Below are positions 21,859 through 52,040 of a DNA stretch of 64,000 bases, in pieces. The notes under the pieces were generated by a model that worked only from the letters and a program-made list of their open reading frames with translations, did not search any database and was not told where the DNA came from. Numbering within the stretch: the first letter of the stretch is position 1; every line of letters begins with the position of its first letter. The position numbers and the translations under genes are program-made. Source of the DNA: Lysobacterales bacterium (GTDB taxonomy: Bacteria; Pseudomonadota; Gammaproteobacteria; Xanthomonadales; Rhodanobacteraceae); contig JBBQZR010000028.1 of assembly GCA_038207515.1 (NCBI GenBank), positions 2,308-66,307 on the forward strand. The letters are read 5' to 3'.

Positions 21859-23598
21859 ATGAAACGCTTCCGCACCGCGGCCAGCCTGGCCGCGCTGGTC
21901 CTGCCCTGCCTCTTTTCCACAGGCGCCACGGCACAGATCAAAGGCGCCAACTGGCTGCGCACCGATCACACCTACAGCAACGTGCCATCGACGGACCCGC
22001 GCCGCGTCGGCTGGAACCTCGAATTCGCGCGCGACGTGCCGTCCATGAGCAGCTGGTCGGCCAACTACAACACGCTGTGGAGTCAGTACGGCATCCGCAC
22101 CCTATTCCGCATCGGCTACGACGCCAAGCCGACGGCGGCGGAAAAAGCGCTGCTCAATGCGGCCACCTTCACCAACTGCAGCGGCATCAACGGCCTGATG
22201 AGCGCACTGGATGCCGAGGCCGCCAACGCGAACAATGCCAACGCCGCCGCAGTCGGCGGCTACCTGCTCGGCAACGAGCCGAATCTGGCCGCGGAATGGG
22301 GCATCGGCGGCCGCGCCTACGGGCGCATCTACCAGTGCTACATCACCCGCTGGAATGCCGGCGCGCTGGGCGCGCGCAACCTGTTCGCGTCCGGCCCGGG
22401 CGGGTGCTTCGACGGCACCTGTCCGACCTTCTACTCCGAGATGTTCGGCGCCATGGGCACGACCGTCGACGGATTCGCTATCCATGCCTACGGCCAGACC
22501 GATACCGCGTTCGACGGTGATTTCCGCTGGCAGCTCAGCGCGATCAACAGCGCGAGCAACGCCAACGTGCGCAACAAGCCGGTCTACATCACCGAATTCA
22601 ACGCCGGCGCCAGCGAAAACAACCCCCTGCCGGTCGCGCCGAGCGCTGCCTATTTCAACGGCGTGATGAGCAAGGTGCGCGATTTCAACGCCGCCAACGG
22701 CGGCCAGATCAAGGCGGTGATGTACTTCGTCGACTCGCCGTCGCCATGGATACGCGGTGGCCAGCAGTGCCACCCCGCCGTGGCGCCGTCGCAGGACGGA
22801 TGGTGGAGAAGTTCACTGTGCTACAGCGGAACCTGGCGCCAGTACTGGCTGGATTCGCAGCCGTCGATCGTGCTGCCGGCGCGCAACGCGAGTGTGAGCT
22901 ATTCGGGCATTCCGTCGTTCATGATGCCGGGCGAAATCCGCCGCTTCACCGCGACCGTCACCAACACCGGCGCGGAGACCTGGACCGGGTCCGGCTCGGC
23001 CAACTGGTATCGCTTCGGCGCGGTCGGCGCCAACGGCTTCATGTTCTCGGCGTTCACCGGCTGCGGCGGCTACGGCAACAGCGTGCTGGATGCGCGCGTC
23101 TATACCTGCGGCAACGTGGGCAACAACGCGACGACGACGTATCCGGTCGATGCGCGCGCACCGACGTCGGGTTCCAATGCGACCTTCCAGGGCCGCATGG
23201 TACGCGACGGCATCGAGTGGTTCGGCAATTCGCCACAGCAGTCGGTGGCCTTGGGCCAGGCCTACTGCGGTACGGCGCTGACCCAGTGCATACTCGGTGC
23301 GCGCAGTGACATCCTGCCGTTCTTCCAAGGCAACGGCTGGAACACCGCCTGCTGGAACCGCGACGCGATTGTCGCCAACTGGTGCGGCCTGGATGCGGCC
23401 GGATGCAACGCACTGCGCAACGGCATCTGCGCGACGTACAACAACAGCTGCCGCTGCTCCGGCGGCACCCACCTGGGCGGCGCCGCCATCGACCCCAACG
23501 GCACTTACTGCGGCTACCAGGTCTGCGGCACCAACCGCCAGATCTACAGCTGCAGTACGGGGAACAGCTGGACGGCTACGGGGCGTGGTTGCAACTGA
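21859..23598 (+). CDS. Secreted clan GH-A-like glycoside hydrolase + NBR1-like Ig domain + Cys-rich C-terminal module
   Basis: Signal peptide; LLGNEPN (acid/base) and VYITEFN (nucleophile); PGE..RFTATVTNTGAETW Ig-like domain; 12 Cys in the last ~110 aa. Confidence 0.75.
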   Translation: MKRFRTAASLAALVLPCLFSTGATAQIKGANWLRTDHTYSNVPSTDPRRVGWNLEFARDVPSMSSWSANYNTLWSQYGIRTLFRIGYDAKPTAAEKALLNAATFTNCSGINGLMSALDAEAANANNANAAAVGGYLLGNEPNLAAEWGIGGRAYGRIYQCYITRWNAGALGARNLFASGPGGCFDGTCPTFYSEMFGAMGTTVDGFAIHAYGQTDTAFDGDFRWQLSAINSASNANVRNKPVYITEFNAGASENNPLPVAPSAAYFNGVMSKVRDFNAANGGQIKAVMYFVDSPSPWIRGGQQCHPAVAPSQDGWWRSSLCYSGTWRQYWLDSQPSIVLPARNASVSYSGIPSFMMPGEIRRFTATVTNTGAETWTGSGSANWYRFGAVGANGFMFSAFTGCGGYGNSVLDARVYTCGNVGNNATTTYPVDARAPTSGSNATFQGRMVRDGIEWFGNSPQQSVALGQAYCGTALTQCILGARSDILPFFQGNGWNTACWNRDAIVANWCGLDAAGCNALRNGICATYNNSCRCSGGTHLGGAAIDPNGTYCGYQVCGTNRQIYSCSTGNSWTATGRGCN

Positions 23599-23640
23599 GT
23601 GCGCGCCTGATCAGGGCTGCTGGCTAATGCGATGAGCAAC

Positions 23641-23670
23641 CGTCGCCTTCCCCTGACCGGGAAGGCGACG
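23641..23670 (+). terminator. Probable terminator hairpin
   Basis: CGTCGCCTTCCC-CTGACC-GGGAAGGCGACG, 12-bp stem downstream of the GH gene; weak U-tract. Confidence 0.6.
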
Positions 23671-23749
23671 TCGTTTCGGGCGATCGCGCGCCGGCTAGCA
23701 ACGCACGCAAACAAGCTTGGGAGCCTGAGCCGCCGTGCGGAATGCCTGA

Positions 23750-24066
23750 TTTTCAGTCATCGATGGATGAATTTCAGTCAACGATGGGTTCGGCGAAGTC
23801 ACCGTTGAGTAGCAGCTTGCCCAACCCGGAGTGACAGGCAGTCACCGATGATTGCTGGCCCCCCGGCGATGGGTGCGCCGCGGTGACCGGCGCGTTCGAA
23901 GAAATCACCGTTGAGTAGGAATTACCCTACGACAAGTAGCGAGGCAGTCATCGCTCGCTGCTGACCAACCGACGATGGCTGCGCCGCAGTCAGCGGAGAC
24001 TTCCGGCCAGTCAGGCGTCACTGAAAATCAACCGAAGCTGGCTAACGCAGAGTCGCCGCTACGCAA
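23750..24066. repeat. Degenerate ~21-bp-period tandem array (about 15 units) with a 106-bp higher-order duplication
   Basis: Core (C/A)AGTCAnCG(A/T)TG or variants at 23754, 23775, 23796, 23839, 23860, 23881, 23902, 23945, 23966, 23987, 24008, 24029; 23792-23897 resembles 23898-24003. Confidence 0.8.
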
Positions 24067-24158
24067 GCGAGGACAGTAACGGCGACATCAGCCAGAACGA
24101 AAAGCGGCACCTGGAAAAACGCCGGAGCGGCGCACGGCCGCCCCGGCAGCGAGGCGAT

Positions 24159-24437
24159 CTACAGGCGCGCCTCGATATGCGCCTCCATCAGCCCAAGCAC
24201 ATCGCGCGACAGGATCGCGACCGCTTCGAGAATGCCGCTGTGCGAATCGGAGTCCGGCGATTCCAGCTTCGCCGTCGCCACCGTCTCGCTGAGCAGCTGG
24301 ATCGCCGAGAGGCGGCACATCACCTCATACTGCCACGCCTCGCGCTGCGCGCGCGTATCAACGAGAAACGCAAACATCACGGGATCCGCCGACGGAACGT
24401 CGCGGCGCATGGGGTAGAACGAACCGTGAGGAGTCAT
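24159..24437 (-). CDS. Small hypothetical protein (92 aa) downstream of c4-like RNA
   Basis: MTPHGSFYP...ILEAVAILSRDVLGLMEAHIEARL; GGAGG RBS; ATGA overlap with the upstream 32-aa ORF. Confidence 0.6.
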   Translation of the reverse strand: MTPHGSFYPMRRDVPSADPVMFAFLVDTRAQREAWQYEVMCRLSAIQLLSETVATAKLESPDSDSHSGILEAVAILSRDVLGLMEAHIEARL

Positions 24438-24532
24438 GGCGCGCGCCTCCCAGTCCCGGGAACAACGCGACCGATACCAACGAAGCAACCCGACGAACGC
24501 CGGTTGCCAAAGCACACAGACCGAATATCCAT
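24434..24532 (-). CDS. 32-aa leader ORF translationally coupled to the 92-aa ORF
   Basis: AAGGGAG RBS, then MDIRSVCFGNRRSSGCFVGIGRVVPGTGRRAP*; its stop overlaps the next ATG. Confidence 0.45.
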   Translation of the reverse strand: MDIRSVCFGNRRSSGCFVGIGRVVPGTGRRAP

Positions 24533-24578
24533 GGACAACTCCCTTTGCGTGGAGTCGCCACCCCGAATAGTGGAAAAA

Positions 24579-24654
24579 GGGTGGCGAACGGTGTGCGGGT
24601 TGGCAGACCGGTGCAGGACCGGCGAGCCTTGCGGCTCCCCACGCACCGTCCGCC
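24579..24654 (-). ncRNA. c4-antisense-like structured RNA (phage P1 c4 / P4 CI type)
   Basis: Outer stem GGCGGACGGUG/CACCGUUCGCC enclosing GAGCC-GCAA-GGCUC and CCGGU-CCUGC-ACCGG hairpins plus single-stranded CUGCCAACCCG; matches the c4 architecture as I recall it. Confidence 0.65.
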
Positions 24655-24690
24655 AGAAATCGACAGATCACGCCGCACGAATTTCGGGCG

Positions 24691-24720
24691 TAAAAAAACG
24701 CCGTCTTTCGGTGCGGCGCT
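24691..24720 (-). terminator. Intrinsic terminator/attenuator upstream of the c4-like RNA
   Basis: CGCCG-CACCGAAAGA-CGGCG followed by TTTTTTT on the minus strand. Confidence 0.7.
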
Positions 24721-24733
24721 GTGCGCCTGCATT

Positions 24734-24769
24734 CGGGCTGCCAAGCCCGGTTGCCGAATTGGCGGCAAC
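24734..24769 (-). promoter_or_regulatory. a1/b1-like antisense target hairpins
   Basis: GUUGCC(G)-loop-(C)GGCAAC then CGGGC-UUGGCA-GCCCG; CGGGCUUGGCAG is complementary to CUGCCAACCCG of the c4-like RNA with one bulge. Confidence 0.6.
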
Positions 24770-24775
24770 GGTCGG

Positions 24776-24804
24776 ATTGTTTACCTCGATGCGGGCGGCG
24801 TCAA
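24776..24804 (-). promoter_or_regulatory. Sigma70-type promoter driving the c4-like locus
   Basis: -35 TTGACG (24804-24799), 17-bp spacer, -10 AACAAT (24781-24776), directly upstream of the target hairpins. Confidence 0.6.
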
Positions 24805-25182
24805 GGGTGTGGATTTGTCCCCTACGCGTGCGCCCGCATTTCTCTGTGCGCACTGCTCTACCCGACACGAGATGAGGGACTTCCAACAATTTCGCTGTCG
24901 ATCGCTCCCCGCACCACTAACCAATGGCGCTGGCAATCGCGCCTCAAGGTGAGAGGTTACTCCGTGTCGAGGCAGAGCATGAACCCATCACCTCGCTGGC
25001 GACTTCGCAAAACCAACAGTCCGCTTTTGTGCGTCGCGTCAACCCGAATACACAAACGTGAACAGACCTACCGCCTTCGTCGCAAACAAATTTGCCGCCA
25101 AGTATTGATTTACACGCACACCTTGCGACTACACTCAGACCACCATCAGCGTCACGCGGGCCGCCAACCAGCCCGCAATCAC

Positions 25183-25560
25183 ATGGCAGGGGGCCATATC
25201 GGACGTAGGACCAGCTTCCTTGGCGCCATGGCCAAGGCACTTGCGCGTTCCGTGCGAGAAGCGGAAGCCCAGCGCCGGGCCCGATCCGCCGACCAGATAC
25301 GACGGGAGCGTTTGCCGGCGGCAGAAGCGCGCACAGAGCGGCAGAGATCAGGGCTGCCGATGTCAGGGCGAGAGCCTATGCACTGCATCAGATCGCGCTG
25401 CAAAGCAATCGGAACGCGACCAAGGCAGGGGCAAAAGAGGCCAAACGCGAGGCCCACGAAGATGCTGCCGACGCCGCAGAGCGGCGCACGAAGGAGGTCG
25501 CCGATGAAGTCGACGATCTGAGGAACCTCCTGCCATATACGCTTTCGTCGACGATTGAAT
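25183..25560 (+). pseudogene. Frameshifted, truncated coiled-coil N-terminus resembling that of some restriction endonuclease-domain proteins
   Basis: MAGGHIGRRTSFLGAMAKALARSVREAEAQRRAR..., then in another frame RAADVRARAY...EAKREAHEDAA...EVADEVDDLRNLL..TL. No catalytic domain remains; the family call is from recall only. Confidence 0.3.
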
Positions 25561-25822
25561 CTGCTTCGGCGACGTTCTTATCAATAAGTCAGTGCTGGCC
25601 TCGGCGCTCCGTCGCTGAAAATGTCGACTTACTACGCACTGCGAAAAATTGTCATTCCGACGCCGCCCGCGCTCCTGCAGTCCTACATCGAGGCAATCCG
25701 TGCGCACACTTGCTGGAGAACTGTTAGGCGCAAGCGCAATCACAGAGAGAGGAAGGAACCAAGCTCCGCACGCAACTTAATCCGACGCTGTTAGTTGGGC
25801 CACATTTTCAAACTCGCCACAG

Positions 25823-27283
25823 ATGGAGCAGTCAGTGGATCACGCTGAGATAAACACAATTCGTACTCAGTATCAGGGAGGTCTCTGGCCGCAATTTCTC
25901 CAAATGGCAAAGATTGAGGGGCTTCGCGGCTGGACTGGTCAGTCGGTTGAGTTCAACTTTCCGGTCGTTGCGCTAGTCGGTGAAAACGGAAGCGGAAAGA
26001 GCACTTTAATGAAAGCTGCTGCTTGCGCCTACGACAACAAGGACAAAGATAAACGATTTTATCCCTCATCGTTCTTTGTGGATACGCACTGGGATACCAT
26101 TGAGAAGGTAACCATCGAGTTCCGCATCAAGCGTGGTACAAACGTCGACACCTATCGTATTACTAAGCCTACTAAACGTTGGCGCGTTCCGCAGAATGCA
26201 CCTAAAAGAGATGTCTATCTTCTGGACATCGCGCGAACTTTACCGCTTGATGCCTCCGCAGGGTACGCCAAGATCGCACGATCCGCCGCCGCGGAAGTCG
26301 AAAGCTCGGAGATTGACGACACGTTCCGCGAGAGGCTATCTCATGTACTGGGGCGGAAGTACAGAAAAGCCCGCTTTGCTACATCTGATGTAGACAAAAA
26401 AAGAATGGTGGGCGTACTAGAGCGAGAATGGGGAGAGCTTTCGCAGTTTCACCAGGGCGCCGGCGAGGACGCAACACTCGATTTGTTTCGCACTCTTCAA
26501 GGTCTCCCCAACCACTCTCTTCTGTTGGTCGACGAAGTGGAGGCCTCATTGCATCCGCGTGCTCAGCGGAGGCTCGTGCGATTCCTACTTTGGCTCGCGC
26601 GGCAACGACGAATACAAGTCATCCTCTCTACACATAGCCCATTCGTCTTGGAGGAACTTCCTCAAGAGGCCCGCATTCTCCTTTTGCCAGGACCGCAAGG
26701 GTTAAGCGTTGTTTACGGAATTTCTGCTGATTTTGCGATGAGCAGATTAGATGATGAGGTACACCCTGAGGTCCATGTATTTGTAGAAGATAGAGACGCA
26801 GAAATTTTGCTTCGTGAGATTCTTGCATCCTCTGAAGAAACAAGCCCGCTTCTCAGTCGTATTGCAATCAGTCCAGTGGGGCCAGTTAACGTCGTTTCTA
26901 TGCTCGGAGAACTAGGAAGAAACGGCAAGCTTCCCTATAAATCCATAGCTGTGCTGGACGGCGACTATAAGCACAACGACTGCCTGAATCTTCCGGGAAA
27001 CATAGCCCCTGAGAGAATGGTTTACGCCGATCTTATGGCTGCTGGCTGGCCAAACCTGCCGCAGCGCTTTGGGATTGGTGCAGGTACATTACTCACGGCG
27101 CTGGAAGACGCGATGCTGGAACCTGATCACCATCGGTGGAATGCATTGGTTGGCGACCAGGTTCACAAAAGCTCCGTCAGCGTTTGGGAAGTGCTCGCCA
27201 ATGAGTGGTGCCGATCCTGCCTTGAACTAGCCGACAGGAAAGCAATCGGCGACGCGATCATTGCAGTCGCAAATCCTGTCTAA
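25823..27283 (+). CDS. OLD-like ABC (AAA_21-type) ATPase with C-terminal TOPRIM domain; candidate anti-phage protein
   Basis: Walker A GENGSGKST, Walker B/D-loop LLLVDEVEASLHP, H-loop STHS; TOPRIM VFVED...LDGD; visibly more AT-rich than the flanks. Confidence 0.8.
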   Translation: MEQSVDHAEINTIRTQYQGGLWPQFLQMAKIEGLRGWTGQSVEFNFPVVALVGENGSGKSTLMKAAACAYDNKDKDKRFYPSSFFVDTHWDTIEKVTIEFRIKRGTNVDTYRITKPTKRWRVPQNAPKRDVYLLDIARTLPLDASAGYAKIARSAAAEVESSEIDDTFRERLSHVLGRKYRKARFATSDVDKKRMVGVLEREWGELSQFHQGAGEDATLDLFRTLQGLPNHSLLLVDEVEASLHPRAQRRLVRFLLWLARQRRIQVILSTHSPFVLEELPQEARILLLPGPQGLSVVYGISADFAMSRLDDEVHPEVHVFVEDRDAEILLREILASSEETSPLLSRIAISPVGPVNVVSMLGELGRNGKLPYKSIAVLDGDYKHNDCLNLPGNIAPERMVYADLMAAGWPNLPQRFGIGAGTLLTALEDAMLEPDHHRWNALVGDQVHKSSVSVWEVLANEWCRSCLELADRKAIGDAIIAVANPV

Positions 27284-27396
27284 ACGGACTATTCCGGCCA
27301 ACGAATAACTTTAGAAAACCTTTTGCTAATAAGTAAATGCAGAAAATGACGACGACTAAACGATTTTCGCCGTGTCATTAACGCACTAGAGATGAA

Positions 27397-28566
27397 CTAC
27401 CCTTTACTTGAACCGCCAAAGGCGAAGAATAATTCACTGAATTGTTCTTCGGCTATGTTCGCGGGATTCTCGCCCGGAAAGCGAATGTGTTCTGGCCAGA
27501 CGATCTCACTAGCTTCGAAAGGACCAGCGAACTTTGGGCCCTGCATCCTCAAGTATGTGTAGTCCGCACCTGTATACAAGCAGGTCATCAGAAACGGGAG
27601 TTCAGATTGGCTATGATGAAGGCACTCACGAATCACATGGGCGAAAACAAAGAACACATCTTTGTGCCGCGCCGAAACGATGGTCCGCTCCAAGCCTACG
27701 CCGATGTTAGCCTGTACCTTCTCGCGCTCGTGATTGGCAACTACTAGGGATAGGTGGCCATTTTGAGAAATGTCCAATTGCCAGTCCCCTCCATTGGCAC
27801 GCCATCCATCGATCGTAGGTCGTCCGGACGACGCCTTGAGGTCACAGAATTTGAATTCTCCTACTCGGTCGTACCCTCGCCACACTCTATCAAAGGCCGT
27901 TGATCGGACTTCCCAAGGACGCGGCAAACCGGTTAGTGGCACGGCCTGCAACAAGAAATAGGCGCCGGCACGGCGCGAGGCATTCCAAGCTATTCTGTCG
28001 CGGGCTAGTTGGCGAGCTTTACCCTCAGCGGTAGCCGACGACAATACCGATTCACGAATTTCATGGGTGTCCATTTCGGTCGTGGACTCTGAGTGTCGAA
28101 TATGAAACCCGCGGTAACCTTGAGAAACCACCATGTGAGGCTTCGTAAAGCTCGAGGGGACATACACGATGAGAAAGCAACGTTCGTCTGCGAATTCTAG
28201 AAGTTTGAATCGTAGACCACTGATCTGCGGATCAAGACCTGAGGCGGCAATTTGTTCTACCTGACGAGCAATTTTCTCGTCGACCTTCGTGCCTACCATA
28301 CGTTCTTCTGGTGTCAGCGAAGCTTTCGGTTCCAGAGCACCGAAAACAAGCATTCCCCCCACGGCGTTAGCAAAGCCGCTTATATCCTTGAGAAGCTCCT
28401 TTTTTCCAGCATCGTTCAGGGGTTTCATGTGGAGTTTGTAGTCTAAGTAGACTCCCTCTGGAACTCCTAAGGCCATGAACTCGCGGAAAGTTTCCTCTGT
28501 CAGAAGGCCGACCTCGTTTGACGTTAAATGCATGAAGAGATCCGGAGTAGTTAAGTTAAAAGCCAT
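27397..28566 (-). CDS. Schlafen/AlbA_2-domain protein with uncharacterised C-terminal region; candidate anti-phage protein
   Basis: EGVYLDYK...LLKDISGFANAVGGMLVFG...IVYVP.S..KPHMV....F..R is AlbA_2-like; AT-rich codon usage. Confidence 0.8.
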   Translation of the reverse strand: MAFNLTTPDLFMHLTSNEVGLLTEETFREFMALGVPEGVYLDYKLHMKPLNDAGKKELLKDISGFANAVGGMLVFGALEPKASLTPEERMVGTKVDEKIARQVEQIAASGLDPQISGLRFKLLEFADERCFLIVYVPSSFTKPHMVVSQGYRGFHIRHSESTTEMDTHEIRESVLSSATAEGKARQLARDRIAWNASRRAGAYFLLQAVPLTGLPRPWEVRSTAFDRVWRGYDRVGEFKFCDLKASSGRPTIDGWRANGGDWQLDISQNGHLSLVVANHEREKVQANIGVGLERTIVSARHKDVFFVFAHVIRECLHHSQSELPFLMTCLYTGADYTYLRMQGPKFAGPFEASEIVWPEHIRFPGENPANIAEEQFSELFFAFGGSSKG

Positions 28567-28648
28567 TCAACGATCGCAAGAGCGATCTGACTCGCGCCAC
28601 CATCGACGTTCCGAGGTTGTACCTCGCAAGAATTGCCGCCGCAGGAAC

Positions 28649-28726
28649 GAGGTCAGGTTCACTTTCTACACGATGCCCGAGGCAACAGAAAGCAGCCAGC
28701 AATGCGGTCAGGTTAACTTCTAGAAC
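28649..28726. repeat. Two direct copies of a GGTCAGGTT(C/A)ACTT REP-like motif
   Basis: 28649-28665 GAGGTCAGGTTCACTTT and 28704-28720 GCGGTCAGGTTAACTTC; 28706-28726 is 20/21 identical to 43865-43885. Confidence 0.65.
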
Positions 28727-30232
28727 TTTTTTCGGCGATAGCATGGCCGCCGAAAAGCGTGAAAACCGGCCGCCCCACCAGCGCATTCGCGAAACACTGA
28801 TTCCCACCTCACCACACCCGCCACCCGCTCCGCCGCCGCCACAAACAACGTCGCCTCACCCCCTACCCCAAACGCCTCATACCAAGCCTGCAGATTGCGC
28901 ACCGCGCCATTGACACGGTAGTTGGCCGGTGAGTGGTAGCCCGAATCGATCTCGGCGCGCAGCGCCGCTTCAGTCGTCTGCGTTCGCCACAGTTGCGCCC
29001 AGGCTAGGAAGAAGCGCTGTTCACCGCTGAAGCCGTCGCGCTTGGCCTTGATGTCTATACCGTTCGCCGCGGCGTGCAGGCGGTAGGCGTCCAGCGCGAT
29101 GGTCACGCCGACGAGGTCGGACAGGTTTTCGCCGAGGCTGCGGCGGCCGTCGAGGTGCGCGCCGGGTAGAGGCGCGAAGGCGGAATACTGCGCGACCAGC
29201 ACGTCGGCCTTGGCATCGAACGCGGCGCGTGCGGCGGTCGACCACCCGTCGCGCAGGTTGCCTTTGTCGTCGAAGCGCGAGCCCTCGTCGTCGAAGCCGT
29301 GCGCCATCTCGTGGCCGCGCACCGCGTCGGTCGCGGATTGCCGTATCGGTGTTCAGCACCACCGCGTCGACGGCCGGATAGCCGCTGGCGGCAACGAACT
29401 CGCGCCACGGAAAACCCGGCGCGTAGCGCAGCAGTTCGTCGAAGGACATCGGGTGATAGTTCAGCCGTCTGTCGCGCAACTGCTGCGGCTTCCACTGCAG
29501 CGCGGCGAGTTTGCCTTCCAGCGCAAGGATGGCGGCGGCGCGCGCAGCGCCGTCGGCGATGCCGGCGCGGGCCAGAGTCTGCGCGATGTAGGCCGCATAG
29601 GCGGTCCGCTGAGGCGCGTATTGCTCGCTCGCGGTGTCGTAGTAGCGCGCGTCCGGCAGGCCGACGATGCGCTTGCCGGCGGCCTGCTGGTCGAGGTGCA
29701 GCCGGCTGCGGCGTGTGTCGCCGGCATCGAGGAAGACGTAGCGCGCGGCAATGGTGTTGGAGAGCGGATGCGCCATCCGCTGCGCGACCTGGACGTGCGT
29801 CGTGATCGCGAGAATCGCATCCAGGTCGGCACGGACCGGCGCAAGGCCGGCCTTGTCGATCGCGTCCAGATCGACGTAGCTGCGATAGAGATCAGATAGC
29901 CTGCTTTTGCCCGCGCCCTGCCCCGCCGCATCGTGGACGATCGCGCGGATGCGCGCTTCGGTGCGCAGGAACATGGCATTCATTTCGCCGTATTGCGCAT
30001 AGCCCGCCGGCCGCGCGGTATCGTGCAGCCAGCCCGCATTGACGAATTCGTAGAAATCGTCGCCGGGCTTGACCGTGGCACTGAGGTGGGCCAGGTCGAC
30101 GCCCCAGCCGCCCGCCGACGGTTTTTCCAGCGCCAGCGCGCGACGCGTGGCAACGGCAAGCGGCAACAGCGCGAGGCCTGCGCACAGGCGCCGCTGGGCG
30201 CGATTGCAGTCCGGCGATTGGGGAACGGTCAT
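28720..30232 (-). pseudogene. M13 (neprilysin-like) metallopeptidase with internal deletion and frameshift
   Basis: N-half (PGDDFYEFVNAGWL, GLPDARYY) breaks at NTDTAIR near 29335 and resumes out of frame at GHEMAHGFDD...GENLSD...HSPANYRVNG; the middle part of the protein is missing. Confidence 0.85.
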
Positions 30233-30611
30233 GGGCACACTCCTGCGGATGGCCTCGGCAACCGCTCGCGCGCACCGTAGCCGGTGAATGCGAACGAACA
30301 CGCGGCGGCGTCGGTGGACGGGGCGAGTAGAGCCGGGATGCCGTGCGGCGACGAAGGGCCGCGGCGCACGATTGCGGCAGCTACGCGCGTCGCTTCACGC
30401 CAATCGCGCTTCGGACGGACCGAACGCCCCCCAAAGGCAAACCTGACTCCGTAAGCCGTTTTTCTCCGCATTCCGAGGCCCAGCGTGGAGCCCGCTTCGC
30501 CAGAGCCCGTTTGCCGCGGAGTTCGTCGGCTTGCGCCGCGTTAAATTTGCAGACGGGATTTGCGCATTGGCCGAGCCATGCGACGGGACCGCCCGCGCTG
30601 GTATCGACCAC

Positions 30612-36146: not shown

Positions 36147-37048
36147 GCATTGGCTTCATCGGCATCGGCCATATGGGTTTGCCCATGGCGCGCAACCTGC
36201 TGAACGCGGGGACGCCGCTGACGGTATGGAACCGCTCGCCGCGCAAGGGCGAGGAACTCGAGCCGCTCGGCGCCATTCGCGCGCGATCCCTCGACGATCT
36301 GTTCGCACACTGCGACATCGTATTGATGATGCTGCTCAACGAATCCGCGATCGATGACGTGCTGGCGCGAGGCACACCGTGCTTCGCCGCGCGTATCGAC
36401 GGCACGACACTCGTCCATCTCGGAACTACGTCGCCCGAATATTCCGCTGCACTGGCGCACGACGTTCACGCCGCGGGTGGTTCGTACGTGGAGGCGCCCG
36501 TGTCGGGCTCGCGCGTGCCCGCCGAGGAAGGCCGTCTGGTCGGCATGGTCGCGGGCACCGACGACGCCGTGGAACGCGTGCTGCCGTTGCTCGCGCCGAT
36601 GTGCGCGAGCGTGTTCCGCTGCGGCGACGTGCCCGGCGCGCTGCGCATGAAGCTGGCCGCGAATCATTTTCTGATCGGCATGGTGACCGTGCTCGCCGAA
36701 ACCGTACACGCGGCGCGGCTCTCCGGCGTGAACATTGATACTTTGCGACAGGTGCTCGACGCCGGTCCGATGGCCAGCGCGGTGTCGCGCATCAAGCTCG
36801 ACAAGCTCGTGCGGGATGACTTCTCCGCGCAGGCCGCGGTCCGCGATGTCGCCACGATTGCGCGCCTCGTCACCGCGCAGTGCGAGCGTGCCGCAGCCGA
36901 TGCGCCGCTGATCCGGCGCTGCGCCGAACTCTTTCGCGCGGCCGACGCAGCCGGGCACGGCGAACACGACATGAGTGCCGTGATCCATGCCTTCGCAACA
37001 CAGGTTTTCGCCGAGGCTGCGGCTGCCGTCGAGGTGCGCGCCGGGTAG
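36143..37048 (+). CDS. NAD(P)-dependent oxidoreductase, 3-hydroxyisobutyrate dehydrogenase family; C-terminus runs into antisense M13 remnant
   Basis: GFIGIGHMGLPMA, WNRS, EAPVSGS, MKLAAN; GTGA overlap with the upstream gene. Confidence 0.9.
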   Translation: MSIGFIGIGHMGLPMARNLLNAGTPLTVWNRSPRKGEELEPLGAIRARSLDDLFAHCDIVLMMLLNESAIDDVLARGTPCFAARIDGTTLVHLGTTSPEYSAALAHDVHAAGGSYVEAPVSGSRVPAEEGRLVGMVAGTDDAVERVLPLLAPMCASVFRCGDVPGALRMKLAANHFLIGMVTVLAETVHAARLSGVNIDTLRQVLDAGPMASAVSRIKLDKLVRDDFSAQAAVRDVATIARLVTAQCERAAADAPLIRRCAELFRAADAAGHGEHDMSAVIHAFATQVFAEAAAAVEVRAG

Positions 37049-37305
37049 TGGCGCGACGCTGGAATATTGCGCCACCAGCACGTCGGCCTTGGCGTCGAAC
37101 GCGGCGCGCGCTTCCGTCGTCCACCAGTCGCCCAGGTTGCCCTTGTCGTCGAAGCGCGAGCCCTGGTCGTCGAAGCCGTGCGCCATCTCGTGGCCGAGCA
37201 CCGCGCCGATCACGCCGAAGTTCACCGCGCTGTCGGCGCTTACGCTACGCGGGCACCTGCAGCAGGCCGGGAACGTCAGGGCGTTGAGCGGCGGACTGAC
37301 GCATT
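37001..37305 (-). pseudogene. Second M13 peptidase fragment around the HExxH motif
   Basis: PLNALTFPA / LLQVP / SADSAVNFGVIGAVLGHEMAHGFDDQGSRFDDKGNL...GENL; 37001-37205 is a near-identical direct copy of 29122-29326. Confidence 0.85.
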
Positions 37306-46450: not shown

Positions 46451-48886
46451 ATGTTCGTTCGCAAAACCCTGCTCTACCGTTCCATCGCCGCGGTGCTCGC
46501 GGCCAGTTCGGCCGTGGCGGCGGCGCAAGGCGGAGCCGGCGCGGATTCGAAGTCGGCGCCGGATGGCGGCGATGCCGAGACCACCGCGCTCGACCTGGTC
46601 ACGGTGACGGCGACCAAACGCAGCACGCCGCTGCAGAAGACCCCGGTCGCGATCACCGCGATCAGTGCGCAGGCGCTGGACAAGGAGCGCGTGATCACGG
46701 TGCAGGACATCACCAGCCTCGTGCCCGGCTTTGCCGCGACCACCCAGGGCGACCACGGCGTGATCACGCTGACCCTGCGCGGCATCGGCAACGACAGCGC
46801 GAAGACCGAATATGCCGATCCGGAGGTCGCCCTGTTCGTCGACGGCATCTACACGCCGCGCGCGGAAGGTGCCGCCTCGTTGTTGCTCGATCTCGAATCG
46901 GTCGAGGTACTACGCGGACCGCAAGGCACGCTGTGGGGCCGCAATTCGACGGTCGGCGCGGTGAATATGCAGACCGCCAAGCCCGTGATCGGCGACAGCT
47001 CGGGCAATGTGCAGTTCGGCCTCGGCAACTACGCGCGCCTCGGCGGCCGCGGCGCCTTCAACCTGCCGATCAGCGAAAGCTGGGCGGTGCGCGTCGCCTT
47101 CGCCCACGAGCAGCATGAGGGCTACGTCGACTACCAGAATCCCGGCGCGCTGCTGCCGTCGCTCGAGGCACAGCGCGCCGCCTACCTGGCGTCGGGCGGC
47201 GATCCTGCCGCATTCCAGGCGATCAATCCGAACCTGTTCGTCGCCGGCGGCGAAAAGTACAACGCGCAGAACCAGAGCGCGGTGCGGATCAGCAGCCTGC
47301 TCCAGCCGAGCGACACCTTCAGCTGGAACGTGTCCTACGAATACTTCCGCGATACCGGCACGCCGAGCATGAACCTGATGCAGACGCCGCGCGCGGGCCA
47401 GGATTTCTGGTCCGCCCTGATCGACACGGCGCCGTCGCTCGATCGTGAGGCGAACAGCCTGCGCAGCCGCATGGACTGGGAGCTCAGCGACTACCTGTCG
47501 TTGTCCTACATTGCCGGCATCAGCCGCTTCGAAGGATCGGCGGATTTCGATCAGGACGGCGGCGTGCAGGTGCCGACCAGTTTCACCACTGGCGCGACCT
47601 ACCAGCAGGACCGCACCAACTATTCGGTCTATCGCAATCACAGCCACGAACTGAACCTGACGTCGAATGGCGAGAACACCATCGACTGGATCCTCGGCCT
47701 CTATTACGCCGCCGAGAAAAACAAGATCCGCTTCGATATCCCGATCTTCAATGGCACGCAGCAGGGTACGGTCGCCTGGCAAGGCTCGTTCATCCAGCCC
47801 AAGCAGACCGTCGATTCCAAAGCCGTTTTCGGCCAGGCAACGTGGAACGTGTCGGACGTATTCCGCCTGACCGGCGGTCTGCGCTACACCGATGACGCGA
47901 AGGAAAACATCGGCGGCCGCGGCTGGGGCTGGCAAGGCTACGGCAATCCCGACATTCCGCAGGTACCGATCGCGCCGGGCACGATTCCGAGCAACGCGAA
48001 CGGTTTCGGATTCGGCATCGGCGGCATCAACGACGGCCAGTACGACCACGGCCAGCTGACCTGGCTGGCGCGCGCGGACTACGACGTGGCTGAGGACTTC
48101 CTGGTCTACGCCAGCGTGTCGACCGGCTACAAATCCGGTGGCCTGCAGGACGGCGGCGTGCCGTACCGGCACGAGGAGCTGACCAATTTCGAGATCGGCA
48201 CCAAGTCGTCCTTCCTCGATGGAAACGTGGTCTGGAACAACGCCATCTACTACGAGGATTTCAAGGATTTCCAGCTGGCCGCGCCGATCACGTTCGTCGA
48301 CGGCAGCCGCGGACTCGGCTTTTCGAACGTGAAGGGCAGCACGAAGGTCTGGGGCTTCGAATCGGAATTGAATGCGCGCCTGAGCGACGACGATCGCCTG
48401 CAGTTCGTGTTCTCGGCGATTCCGCACAAGAAGCTCGGCACTCTGCTGTACGCCGGCTCCAACGACTATCAGGGGCTGCCGCCCTGCCCGGCCGCATCGG
48501 GCATCGGCAACTGTCTCGACGTCTCGGGCAACGAACTCGCGCATGCGCCCGATGCCGCGTTCACCCTGGTCTACGAGCACGATTTCCGCTTCGCCAGCGG
48601 CGCGCGGCTGACCCCGCGCATCAGTACCCACTACGAAACCGAAAGCTGGCTCAGTGCGTTCAACCTCGGCGACGGCGACAAGCAGTCCAGCTACACCCGT
48701 ACCGATCTCAGCGCGCGCTATCTCAATCCGGACGGCACCTGGTACGTCGACCTCTACGTCGACAACGTCGAGGACAAGAAGATACGCACCAGTGCAGGCA
48801 GGACCGCCGTCGGCAGCGGCTTTGAATACCTCTCGCAATACCTGCCGCCACGAACCGTCGGGATGAATTTCGGCTTCTGGTTCTGA
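46451..48886 (+). CDS. TonB-dependent receptor
   Basis: Signal peptide; VTVTATKR, VEVLRGPQGTLWGRNS..GAVN, GYKSGG; C-terminal Phe. Confidence 0.95.
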   Translation: MFVRKTLLYRSIAAVLAASSAVAAAQGGAGADSKSAPDGGDAETTALDLVTVTATKRSTPLQKTPVAITAISAQALDKERVITVQDITSLVPGFAATTQGDHGVITLTLRGIGNDSAKTEYADPEVALFVDGIYTPRAEGAASLLLDLESVEVLRGPQGTLWGRNSTVGAVNMQTAKPVIGDSSGNVQFGLGNYARLGGRGAFNLPISESWAVRVAFAHEQHEGYVDYQNPGALLPSLEAQRAAYLASGGDPAAFQAINPNLFVAGGEKYNAQNQSAVRISSLLQPSDTFSWNVSYEYFRDTGTPSMNLMQTPRAGQDFWSALIDTAPSLDREANSLRSRMDWELSDYLSLSYIAGISRFEGSADFDQDGGVQVPTSFTTGATYQQDRTNYSVYRNHSHELNLTSNGENTIDWILGLYYAAEKNKIRFDIPIFNGTQQGTVAWQGSFIQPKQTVDSKAVFGQATWNVSDVFRLTGGLRYTDDAKENIGGRGWGWQGYGNPDIPQVPIAPGTIPSNANGFGFGIGGINDGQYDHGQLTWLARADYDVAEDFLVYASVSTGYKSGGLQDGGVPYRHEELTNFEIGTKSSFLDGNVVWNNAIYYEDFKDFQLAAPITFVDGSRGLGFSNVKGSTKVWGFESELNARLSDDDRLQFVFSAIPHKKLGTLLYAGSNDYQGLPPCPAASGIGNCLDVSGNELAHAPDAAFTLVYEHDFRFASGARLTPRISTHYETESWLSAFNLGDGDKQSSYTRTDLSARYLNPDGTWYVDLYVDNVEDKKIRTSAGRTAVGSGFEYLSQYLPPRTVGMNFGFWF

Positions 48887-48926
48887 GCGCTGCTCGTCCG
48901 ATCCATCGGGCAACCCCGTTCCCCGG

Positions 48927-50458
<1,532 letters not shown>

Positions 50459-50560
50459 CCAGCGCCGCGCCGAAAGCCGGTCGCGCGCATCACGCAACAG
50501 GCGGGGCGCGCTGCGCTGTCGCGCCGCCCCTTCGTACGCAGCCGGAGTGAACCCGCAACC

Positions 50561-51946
50561 ATGAACGCAATCCCTGTCGCGGCACCCGCGGAGCGGCTGC
50601 CGACGCGACGCTATCTCGGCTATGGGCTCGGCGATTTCGCCTTCAATTTTTACTGGCTGCCGCTGCAGGTCTTTCTGCTCAAGTACTACACCGACGTGCT
50701 CGGCCTCGACAGCGGTGCGGCCGGCATCATCGTCATGATCTGCCTGATCTGGGACGGCCTGGTCGATCCGCTGATCGGCATCGTCGCCAACAAGACGCGC
50801 ACGCGCTTCGGACGCTATCGCCCGTACATGCTGTTCGGCGCGATTCCGCTGGCGGTGACCTTCAGTTTCGTGTTCCTGCCGGTGCCGTTCCACGATACCG
50901 CGCTGGTCGTGTATGCGCTGGTCACCCAGCTGCTGTTCCGCACGATCTACGCCGCCGTCAACATCCCCTACGGCGCCATGATGGCGTCGATGACCCGCGA
51001 CTCGATGGAGCGCAACTGGCTGGCCGGCGCGCGCATGCTGTTCGCGTTCAGCGGCTCGGCCGTGGTCGGCTATGCGACACCGCGACTGGTGGCCTGGCTC
51101 GGTGTCAGCAATCCGGACTCGGCCTATTTCTGGTCGGCAGCAATCCTGTCGTCGTTCGCGACGCTGATCATCTTCGCCAGCTACGGGTTGACCGAGGAAC
51201 GTCTCGAACCGGTGGCCGAGCAGCAACGTCATCCACCCCTTCGCGAACTGCTGCGCATGCTGGCCAGGAACACGCCTTTCCTGCAGGCTGCGGCGGCGAT
51301 CGCCCTGTTCGGCTTCGCCAGCACGGTCACCAGCGCGAGCCTGCCGTACTTCGTGCAGTACTACATGCGCGGCGCGCCGACCATGACCGGCGATCTCGCC
51401 AGCATGATCCCGTTCGTGCAGATGCTGGCGATCCTGCCGTGGACGCTGATCAGCCGCCATACCGGCAAGCGCGCGGCGTGGATCATCGGCCTGCTCATCG
51501 CCACGGCGGCGCTCGGCGTGCTGAACCTGATCGACAAGCCGGATGCGACCGTGGTGTTCGTGCTGGTCGGAGTCACCGCGTTCGGCTCGGCCGCGATCGC
51601 CGTCAACTTCTGGTCTATCGTGCCGGACACGGTCGAATACGGCGAGTGGCGATCCGGCGTGCGCGTCGAGGGGTTCGTGTTCGGCCTGGTCACCCTGATC
51701 CAGAAGTCGGCGCTCGGCCTTTCCTCCGCGTTCGTCGGCCTGTATCTGGTCTGGATCGGCTATGTGCCGAACCAGGAACAGGCGCCGTCGACGGTCGAGG
51801 GACTCAAGCTCATGTTCACGCTGTTTCCGATGTTCGGCATGCTCGCCTCGTGTGCGGTCATGCTGTTCTACCGGCTGGACGCCGGCACGCATGCGCGGCT
51901 GGTCGCCGAAATCGCCGCACGCACGCCGGTGCGGCCGGCTGCATGA
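50561..51946 (+). CDS. MFS glycoside-pentoside-hexuronide (GPH):cation symporter
   Basis: WDGLVDPLIG..A.KTRTRFGRYRPY, NIPYGAM, WSIVPDTVEYGEWRSG.R.EG. Confidence 0.93.
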   Translation: MNAIPVAAPAERLPTRRYLGYGLGDFAFNFYWLPLQVFLLKYYTDVLGLDSGAAGIIVMICLIWDGLVDPLIGIVANKTRTRFGRYRPYMLFGAIPLAVTFSFVFLPVPFHDTALVVYALVTQLLFRTIYAAVNIPYGAMMASMTRDSMERNWLAGARMLFAFSGSAVVGYATPRLVAWLGVSNPDSAYFWSAAILSSFATLIIFASYGLTEERLEPVAEQQRHPPLRELLRMLARNTPFLQAAAAIALFGFASTVTSASLPYFVQYYMRGAPTMTGDLASMIPFVQMLAILPWTLISRHTGKRAAWIIGLLIATAALGVLNLIDKPDATVVFVLVGVTAFGSAAIAVNFWSIVPDTVEYGEWRSGVRVEGFVFGLVTLIQKSALGLSSAFVGLYLVWIGYVPNQEQAPSTVEGLKLMFTLFPMFGMLASCAVMLFYRLDAGTHARLVAEIAARTPVRPAA

Positions 51947-52040
51947 CCGATCGCGCCACGCCGGCCCAGGCGGGAGCTTGCCTATACAATCGGCGCCACA
52001 ATCGGCGCAAACGGAGCGCTTCGGCGTGGAGGCCGAACCG

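Follow-up and report, generated by a model that had tools for sequence, protein, structure and literature searches.

The question raised by this locus is what a block of short, helically phased repeats is doing between a glycosyl-hydrolase-like gene and a c4 antisense RNA module, and whether it serves that module. An initial annotation, made from the letters alone, had described a non-coding array of about 15 units of 21-22 bp with an internal 106-bp duplication, and had proposed either a nucleoprotein scaffold, with the neighboring 92-aa protein as candidate binder, or a decayed heptad-coding repeat. We analyzed the array in the window, i.e., the whole 64,000-nucleotide stretch of DNA under study, together with its relatives in other genomes. 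In the window, the array occupied positions 23742-24063 and comprised 15 phased units of 21-22 bp in which a 106-bp block was present twice, and its parts were as follows.

23742 to 24063, forward strand: the element, a head followed by 15 units of 21-22 bp (periodicity, unit chain and skeleton score).
23747, 23768, 23789, 23811, 23832, 23853, 23874 and 23895: starts of array units 1 to 8.
23916, 23938, 23959, 23980, 24001, 24022 and 24043: starts of array units 9 to 15.
23792 to 23897, forward strand: first copy of the 106-bp block, five units (repeat search, autocorrelation and BLAST).
23898 to 24003, forward strand: the 106-bp block again, at ~73% identity to its first copy.

Autocorrelation over positions 23740-24080 was strongest at lag 106 (z 9.5), followed by lag 21 (z 7.2), and harmonics were seen at lags 42, 63/64, 85, 127 and 148; for shuffled sequences, the 95th percentile of the best lag was z 3.6. 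Dynamic programming yielded a chain of 15 units that scored 139 on the 13-position skeleton of the family, as compared with 79 ± 3.4 (maximum 88) for shuffled sequences, and the 106-bp duplication was recovered both by repeat search (e.g., 23836-23897 vs. 23942-24003, 74%) and by BLAST (73% over 104 bp). The period, the number of units, the duplication and the 21-bp phasing of the palindromic units were therefore all borne out. Two 22-bp units were likewise present as annotated, although in a slightly different register, being the third (23789) and the ninth (23916) unit in our parse. Of the two checks that had been suggested for the period, autocorrelation confirmed it, whereas Tandem Repeats Finder saw only the first two units (23747-23787) because the remaining units are degenerate, and the window array is thus real but degenerate. 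As few as three units kept 12-13 of the 13 skeleton positions and another three kept 10-11. The head, ATGCCTGA, began at 23742 and was immediately preceded by GTGCGGA.

The array sat between convergent genes, namely a 579-aa gene on the forward strand (21859-23598) whose product is secreted and glycosyl-hydrolase-like, and the 92-aa ORF on the reverse strand (24437-24159), and it was flanked by two convergent terminators. The surrounding features are listed below.

23641 to 23670, forward strand: hairpin with a perfect 12-bp stem that closes the 579-aa gene and forms the outer boundary of the intergenic region (inverted-repeat search).
23599 to 28800, no strand assigned: lower-GC island with the array at its outer edge (GC profile, Pfam and synteny).
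24117 to 24821, reverse strand: multi-copy module of 705 bp holding a1/b1 targets, isrK-like RNA, C4 RNA, the 92-aa ORF and a terminator (Rfam).
24694 to 24782, reverse strand: a1/b1 targets and isrK-like RNA (Rfam c4-a1b1, RF03163; isrK, RF01394).
24577 to 24660, reverse strand: C4 antisense RNA (Rfam C4, RF01695).
24159 to 24437, reverse strand: 92-aa open reading frame downstream of c4, the neighbor of the array.
24120 to 24148, reverse strand: intrinsic terminator with a T-run after it, which ends the c4/92-aa operon and separates the 92-aa ORF from the array.
25823 to 27283, in the island past the c4 module: AAA_21/AAA_15 ATPase (Pfam).
27397 to 28566, in the island past the c4 module: gene for a Schlafen AlbA_2 protein (Pfam).

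The terminator of the c4/92-aa operon coincided with the end of the multi-copy module (boundary 24117), and the array lay outside the module. Similarity to the genomes G005, G008 and G004 ended at the stop codon of the 579-aa gene (window 23598/23599), and because each of the three carried different DNA after this gene, the junction is a rearrangement or insertion hotspot. In G005, the 579-aa gene was 94% identical to that of the window; the hairpin after it was not that of the window, and neither was the array-like stretch there, which could not be aligned with the window array. At the far edge of the island, an M13 peptidase gene (28720-30301) was split into two overlapping ORFs, one for the N-domain (29021-30301) and one for the C-domain (28720-29322), and a 215-bp fragment that was 90% identical to part of this gene was seen at 37000-37214.

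The source genome (G000) belongs to the genus Tahibacter, and a genome-wide scan for consensus units located four arrays in it, designated C28 (the window), C92, C5 and C27. BLAST of the window array against its own genome gave only weak matches, yet these led to the other copies; a query built of ten consensus units recovered all four arrays at E < 3e-8 with zero false matches. Further arrays were present in at least six other Tahibacter species (G005, G007, G008, G010, G013 and G015). Ten of the new arrays were measured, and eight spanned 294-349 bp, while the other two spanned 234 and 169 bp. Most arrays shared one conserved end, or head, of the form (GTGCAC)G-ATGCCTGA(A/T)(A/T)(A/T)TCA, which was conserved in 11 arrays. 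The unit skeleton was TGA-www-TCA-s-TCA-nCGn-TGA-s, and the logo over 65 Tahibacter units read T G A w w w T C A s T C A n C G a T G A s. Within this design, the inverted hexamers GAsTGA and TCAsTC alternate with spacers of 3 and 6 bp, and each 21-bp unit has two dyad centers, TGAwwwTCA and TCAnCGnTGA.

When the flanks of all module copies were scanned, the C92 array was found to occupy the same position and orientation beside a module copy as in the window, with lags of 106, 85, 21, 64 and 43. The lag-106 peak was also seen in the C5 array, such that the superperiod was common to C28, C92 and C5. In both C92 and C5 the 22-bp units fell at the same two positions, 106 bp apart, which explains the shared superperiod; judged from sequence, this placement argues for arrays descending from one structured ancestor.

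A coding explanation of the 21-bp period was weighed first against these copies. According to this explanation, the array once encoded, or in a short ORF still encodes, a protein of heptad repeats (MPDFQSSM..., 7 aa being 21 bp), and the consensus unit does leave one frame open per strand, the arrays start with ATG CCT GA, and several first ORFs end in ...AVLxxx by our own reading. Against it, the window array contained stops in all six frames, and the first ORFs of the Tahibacter arrays extended for only 23-64 codons, each stopping at the first 22-bp unit, with no Shine-Dalgarno-like sequence seen before the ATG. The orthologous C27 pair differed by 19 substitutions that were distributed 7/7/5 over the codon positions and by a 1-nt frameshifting indel, while all four substitutions in the C92 ORF changed the amino acid. 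The same frame could be followed into the acidobacterial genome G481 described below, where two arrays read by eye (L127 and L258) carried a unit variant, GGTGATCGATCACC, that places a TGA in the frame open in Tahibacter, and in L258 all three frames were soon stopped. Because the frame is closed in both, it is the DNA that is conserved and not a protein. The comparison of codon positions that had been suggested as a check for a coding relic thus gave no third-position bias between orthologues, a decayed heptad-coding repeat is refuted for the present sequences, and the element is non-coding, as originally annotated. That it encodes, or once encoded, such a protein is in our estimate extremely improbable.

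The 705-bp module was represented in G000 by nine full copies (window, C8, C53, C9, C56, C21 twice, C92 and C101) and several partial ones at 75-84% identity, and many copies were present in other Tahibacter species. Two of the four G000 arrays lay within ~60-160 bp of one of the approximately nine modules in 6.2 Mb, for which our own arithmetic gives a chance of ~1e-6, and an array also stood beside a c4 module once in G008 and twice in G010. The association with c4 is therefore far above chance, but the array is no component specific to the c4 locus, nor is the association obligatory: at least seven of the nine full modules had no array, half of the arrays adjoined XRE/radC genes without the 92-aa protein, and at least 17 loci with matches were found in G481. 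The C4 RNA itself had no special complementarity to the array, as evidenced by duplex energies inside the shuffle range on either strand. Beside another c4 module, at G000:C53 (~36800-36960), the position of the array was taken by a different repeat with four copies of approximately (A/G)GTAGTGGGTGTCCAGAAA.

Contexts were typed by clustering the flanking ORFs of 11 oriented arrays. In type C, the array is followed by the convergent 92-aa ORF with c4 (window, C92, G008:C141 and G010:C21); the arrangement at G010:C8, which was outside the clustered set, is type C by sequence reading. In type R (C5, C27, G008:C47, G008:C97 and G013:C17), a 159-aa gene and a terminator precede the array, and a RadC-like JAB gene comes after it, in some loci with an XRE HTH_3 gene of opposite strand in between; the 159-aa gene of these loci had no family match. 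The genes beside other arrays were XRE, radC, CHAT or peptidase genes. Random insertion does not account for this close and oriented association with c4 or radC modules in Tahibacter, and the link between array and c4 is one of neighborhood on the same type of island and not one of mechanism.

In all three loci profiled (window, C5 and C27), the array lay at the outer edge of a short lower-GC stretch. Three arrays had orthologues in G008, and identity between G000 and G008 extended through the array and the adjacent module and was then lost, so the cargo differs; between genomes that were 92-98% identical in the flanking genes, this difference began immediately inward of the array with its c4 or radC module. 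At the C5 array (G000:C5 ~47600-52000), a Dcm-type cytosine methyltransferase-like gene was followed by genes for P-loop-like proteins of 323 and 676 aa, which by its gene content looks like a defense-type cassette. At G008:C127, a 5.4-kb insert was located between the array and radC, with direct repeats of ~58 bp at its ends (~90400-84930, locus L236; corresponding G000 site C27:57250-57310). These ends look like attL/attR, and the insert, which starts with six copies of a different, 23-bp repeat, TTCCGGnCCATGnGAAGCCAGCA, contained ABC-ATPase-like and nuclease-like genes; the att-like 58-bp repeat was absent from the window and from the other arrays.

Outside Tahibacter, scans of 400 genomes from the order and 400 from the class found no arrays, and a 16-mer search of 120 genomes of the family gave chance-level matches only. 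A plasmid collection had no array match. Viral contigs had no arrays and only six single matches, at least one of them in a tape-measure-like ORF (DFQSSM), and two metagenome scans produced zero arrays, the three loci inspected out of seven with matches being isolated palindromes. An exact-pattern scan of all species genomes likewise returned mostly chance matches, but it found one acidobacterial contig: DASWMP010000387, from a Thermoanaerobaculia (Acidobacteriota) MAG (G481), begins with a very regular array of the unit GGTCATCGATGACTGAATTTC. The pnp gene lies ~3 kb from this first array, and because the encoded PNPase is only 49% identical to that of Tahibacter, the contig is not misbinned. 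Matches occurred at 17 or more G481 loci, and 14 loci that were examined yielded 13 arrays, mostly ~300 bp long (168-403 bp), with the logo y G A w w w T C r G T s A T C G A T s A C over 140 units. Several shared one conserved end, TGGATCACCGGAAATCGGTGATCGATCTGTGGAAATCACT, which resembles the Tahibacter head, and several contained a single special GC-rich hairpin unit each. They were located in ordinary intergenic regions with housekeeping-looking neighbors, taken to be clpB and queC/queE from N-terminal sequences, and two lay in divergent promoter regions. Two of 80 relatives of G481 carried arrays, one or two each. The array-bearing intergenic regions of G481 also held at least two more repeat families (L254, L255, L256, L259, L261 and L265), including a palindrome, GGACAGACA...TGTCTGTCC, and a conserved stretch of ~60 nt, ATCTCGGAGTGCGGTGGCG..GGAGGGTGTCTCAAAACGG.

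This distribution bears on whether each array arose independently in place, through slippage amplification of a single palindromic operator and with no common mobile ancestor. Local expansion of tandem repeats is possible, and by BLAST the 106-bp blocks within an array were more alike than blocks of different arrays, as such growth would predict. Length, polarity and head, however, were the same at unrelated loci in two phyla, and the C92 and C5 arrays both have their 22-bp units 106 bp apart. The absence of relatives with only one or two units at loci where others have full arrays likewise speaks against local growth, and we regard independent origin as very improbable. Since head, skeleton and length are common across loci and genomes, and the 106-bp superperiod recurs in three G000 arrays, the family seems, on these sequence features, to have been copied as a whole unit and not grown locally.

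A functional explanation is that ~15 dyad-symmetric sites at two-turn spacing load a dimeric DNA-binding protein cooperatively on one face of the helix. The putative complex at the island border would then serve as a handle of centromere or iteron type, as an insulator or as a nucleation site for silencing. The dyad-symmetric skeleton, with 1.7-1.9 bits at its TG, CA, TC and TG positions over the 65 Tahibacter units, speaks for such a protein, as do the strict 21-bp spacing and the constant position and orientation at island edges, where the adjacent genes are regulatory (either XRE, of the helix-turn-helix type, or the c4 module). The three orthologous G000/G008 pairs differed at 5-10% of sites, which is about the level of the flanking genes and below that of some adjacent non-coding DNA, so that the arrays are at least as conserved as neighboring genes, which also speaks for binding. 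Within recognizable units, however, skeleton positions were no better protected than variable ones (7.3%, 39/533, vs. 7.7%, 25/326; Fisher p 0.89), and the equal rates mean that no constraint on the motif is detectable, with limited power at 64 substitutions. A weak constraint could be hidden, as the conservation relative to some adjacent non-coding DNA would allow, because the skeleton test has only 64 substitutions to draw on. The window copy, moreover, retains only about six good units, and the G481 arrays adjoin unrelated housekeeping genes.

Also against this explanation, no rep, parA, parB or ribbon-helix-helix gene adjoins the arrays, and no Rep, ParA/ParM or ParB/ParR/ParG gene was found among the neighbors of the window array and five others. 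The 92-aa protein, which the initial annotation had put forward, had no match in family-library searches; its family comprised 11 clusters, whose only source names were 'hypothetical protein' and Rhodanobacteraceae. Its predicted structure consists of a disordered N-terminus and a bare helical hairpin (helices 22-59 and 64-91; pLDDT 75.7), a model that lends no support to sequence-specific DNA binding. With a terminator between its gene and the array, and with the protein missing from half of the arrays, its role as a binder is not supported. Overall, we consider protein loading at these sites a minority reading and unlikely.

Single-stranded folding gave a mixed picture. Most copies folded far below their shuffles (z -6 to -22; e.g., -96 vs. 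-39.5 ± 2.5 kcal/mol), while the window copy folded only marginally better (z -2.5 as DNA; -2.7 and -3.1 as RNA). The strong folding of well-kept copies is one argument that the array acts as a single strand or as RNA, either as a single-strand origin or ssi/Frpo-like hairpin in transfer of the island as single-stranded DNA, or as a multi-hairpin transcription barrier or 3' stabilizer between convergent genes, as in REP/BIME. The ssi/Frpo elements, at ~300 nt, are similar in size to the array, DNA acquired through conjugation typically carries genes of the radC type, and the position of the window array between two convergent terminators would suit a transcript-level role. Yet the folding of the window copy is marginal, and no promoter-like site was found in 23500-24500. 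No relaxase or conjugation genes were seen beside any array, the G481 copies have housekeeping genes beside them, and the C4 RNA is without special complementarity to the array. Rfam 15 covariance models gave no match to the array at the gathering threshold and two chance-level matches at E up to 10. A single-strand or RNA role is accordingly rated as rather doubtful. Independently of folding, A/T cores at every second helical turn should confer intrinsic curvature on the DNA, as expected from established knowledge of phased A-tracts.

With moderate confidence, we therefore interpret the window array as a decaying, degenerate copy of a discrete, polar, non-coding interspersed repeat of ~300 bp, REP/BIME- or MITE-like and of a kind undescribed so far. 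In structure, a single conserved head unit leads into ~14-15 phased 21-bp quasi-palindromes, and several copies contain an internal 106-bp (five-unit) duplication. The element would have spread in the past as selfish DNA, possibly via single-stranded hairpin intermediates handled by an enzyme in trans, or by hitch-hiking on islands; no mobilizing enzyme for the element was identified. Present copies drift without detectable selection on the motif, and since no near-identical copies occur anywhere (G481 copies are 65-85% alike), there is no sign of recent movement. Whatever the copies may now do, be it to block read-through by a hairpin or cruciform or to bend the DNA, would be incidental and not a specific service to the c4 locus. 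If the interspersed-repeat interpretation is true, no special role in the c4 switch has to be invoked for the array, and the 92-aa protein should not be followed up as its binder.

A bolder form of the interspersed-repeat interpretation, which we offer only tentatively, is that the arrays constitute an undescribed class of non-autonomous mobile DNA, made of phased palindromes with one head, that has been exchanged between Acidobacteriota and Gammaproteobacteria and perhaps co-opted in Tahibacter as the outer border or landing pad of fast-turnover islands. The constant position of the array at the edge of islands that swap defense-type cargo would make it usable as a hotspot marker in Tahibacter, and the array is a candidate recombination or insulation border.

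Unlike CRISPR repeats, the units of the element abut with no spacers; the initial annotation had correctly excluded CRISPR. The neighboring locus resembles immI of phage P1 (c4 antisense RNA, icd and ant) in its C4, c4-a1b1 and isrK matches and in the small downstream ORF at the position of icd; the array, by contrast, lies past the operon terminator, is not complementary to the C4 RNA, occurs without the module and has no phage around it. Iterons (P1, R6K, RK2 and F) and centromeres (parC of R1, parH of TP228 and sopC of F) are built of repeats of ~21-22 bp on one face of the helix, and the short sites of the array recur at the same interval, which is the analogy drawn in the initial annotation. 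Unlike iterons, the 15 units of the array are dyad-symmetric, present in both orientations, degenerate and without excess motif conservation, and unlike iterons and centromeres, copies stand beside housekeeping genes in G481. The ssi/Frpo elements agree in size and single-strand folding with the well-kept copies, whereas the window copy has no promoter-like site and no conjugation genes nearby.

A close likeness is to repetitive extragenic palindromes and their tandem clusters, REP/BIME (Di Nocera et al. 2013, PMC3733652), and to REPINs (PMC3116915). As in REP/BIME, the units are short imperfect palindromes (21 bp, within the 20-40 bp criterion) arranged head-to-tail and in both orientations, the elements are extragenic, dispersed and patchy, with a copy number that varies by genome, and the units could form hairpins in transcripts as those of REPs do. 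REP units bear a GTAG or CGTC tetranucleotide tag at one end (PMC3733652); the array logo has neither, and GTAG is sporadic (e.g., twice in the window copy). No RAYT transposase is associated with the arrays: Y1/HUH transposases (PF01797) numbered zero in G000 and G008, nine in G481 and three in G013, none of them beside an array. Copy number is low for REP/BIME, with four copies in G000 and matches at no fewer than 17 loci in G481, all copies being extragenic, and where REPs stand singly or in pairs, the array is a composite of constant size (~300 bp) that combines one conserved head with an internal 106-bp block.

MITEs are matched in that the element is non-coding, 250-350 bp long, highly self-complementary, dispersed and apparently copied whole, but the element differs from them in being polar, with one conserved end and no terminal inverted repeats distinct from the internal units. 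In 20 elements, the first 60 nt compared with the reverse complement of the last 60 nt were no more similar than internal windows; apparent terminal inverted repeats in G481 were rejected, as they proved to be only elements in opposite orientation. Neither a target-site duplication nor a parent insertion sequence was found for the elements, and no empty site was recovered for C27, C28, G008:C47 or G008:C39 because the flanks were rearranged or too divergent, with synteny broken. The element thus lacks at least one defining feature each of REPs, MITEs, iterons, centromeres and CRISPR arrays. If the interspersed-repeat interpretation is true, a family that bears the marks of neither REPs nor MITEs would point to some other way of being copied. 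For repeat biology, the family would be a small curiosity: a fixed-size composite of 21-bp palindromes that is shared by two phyla.
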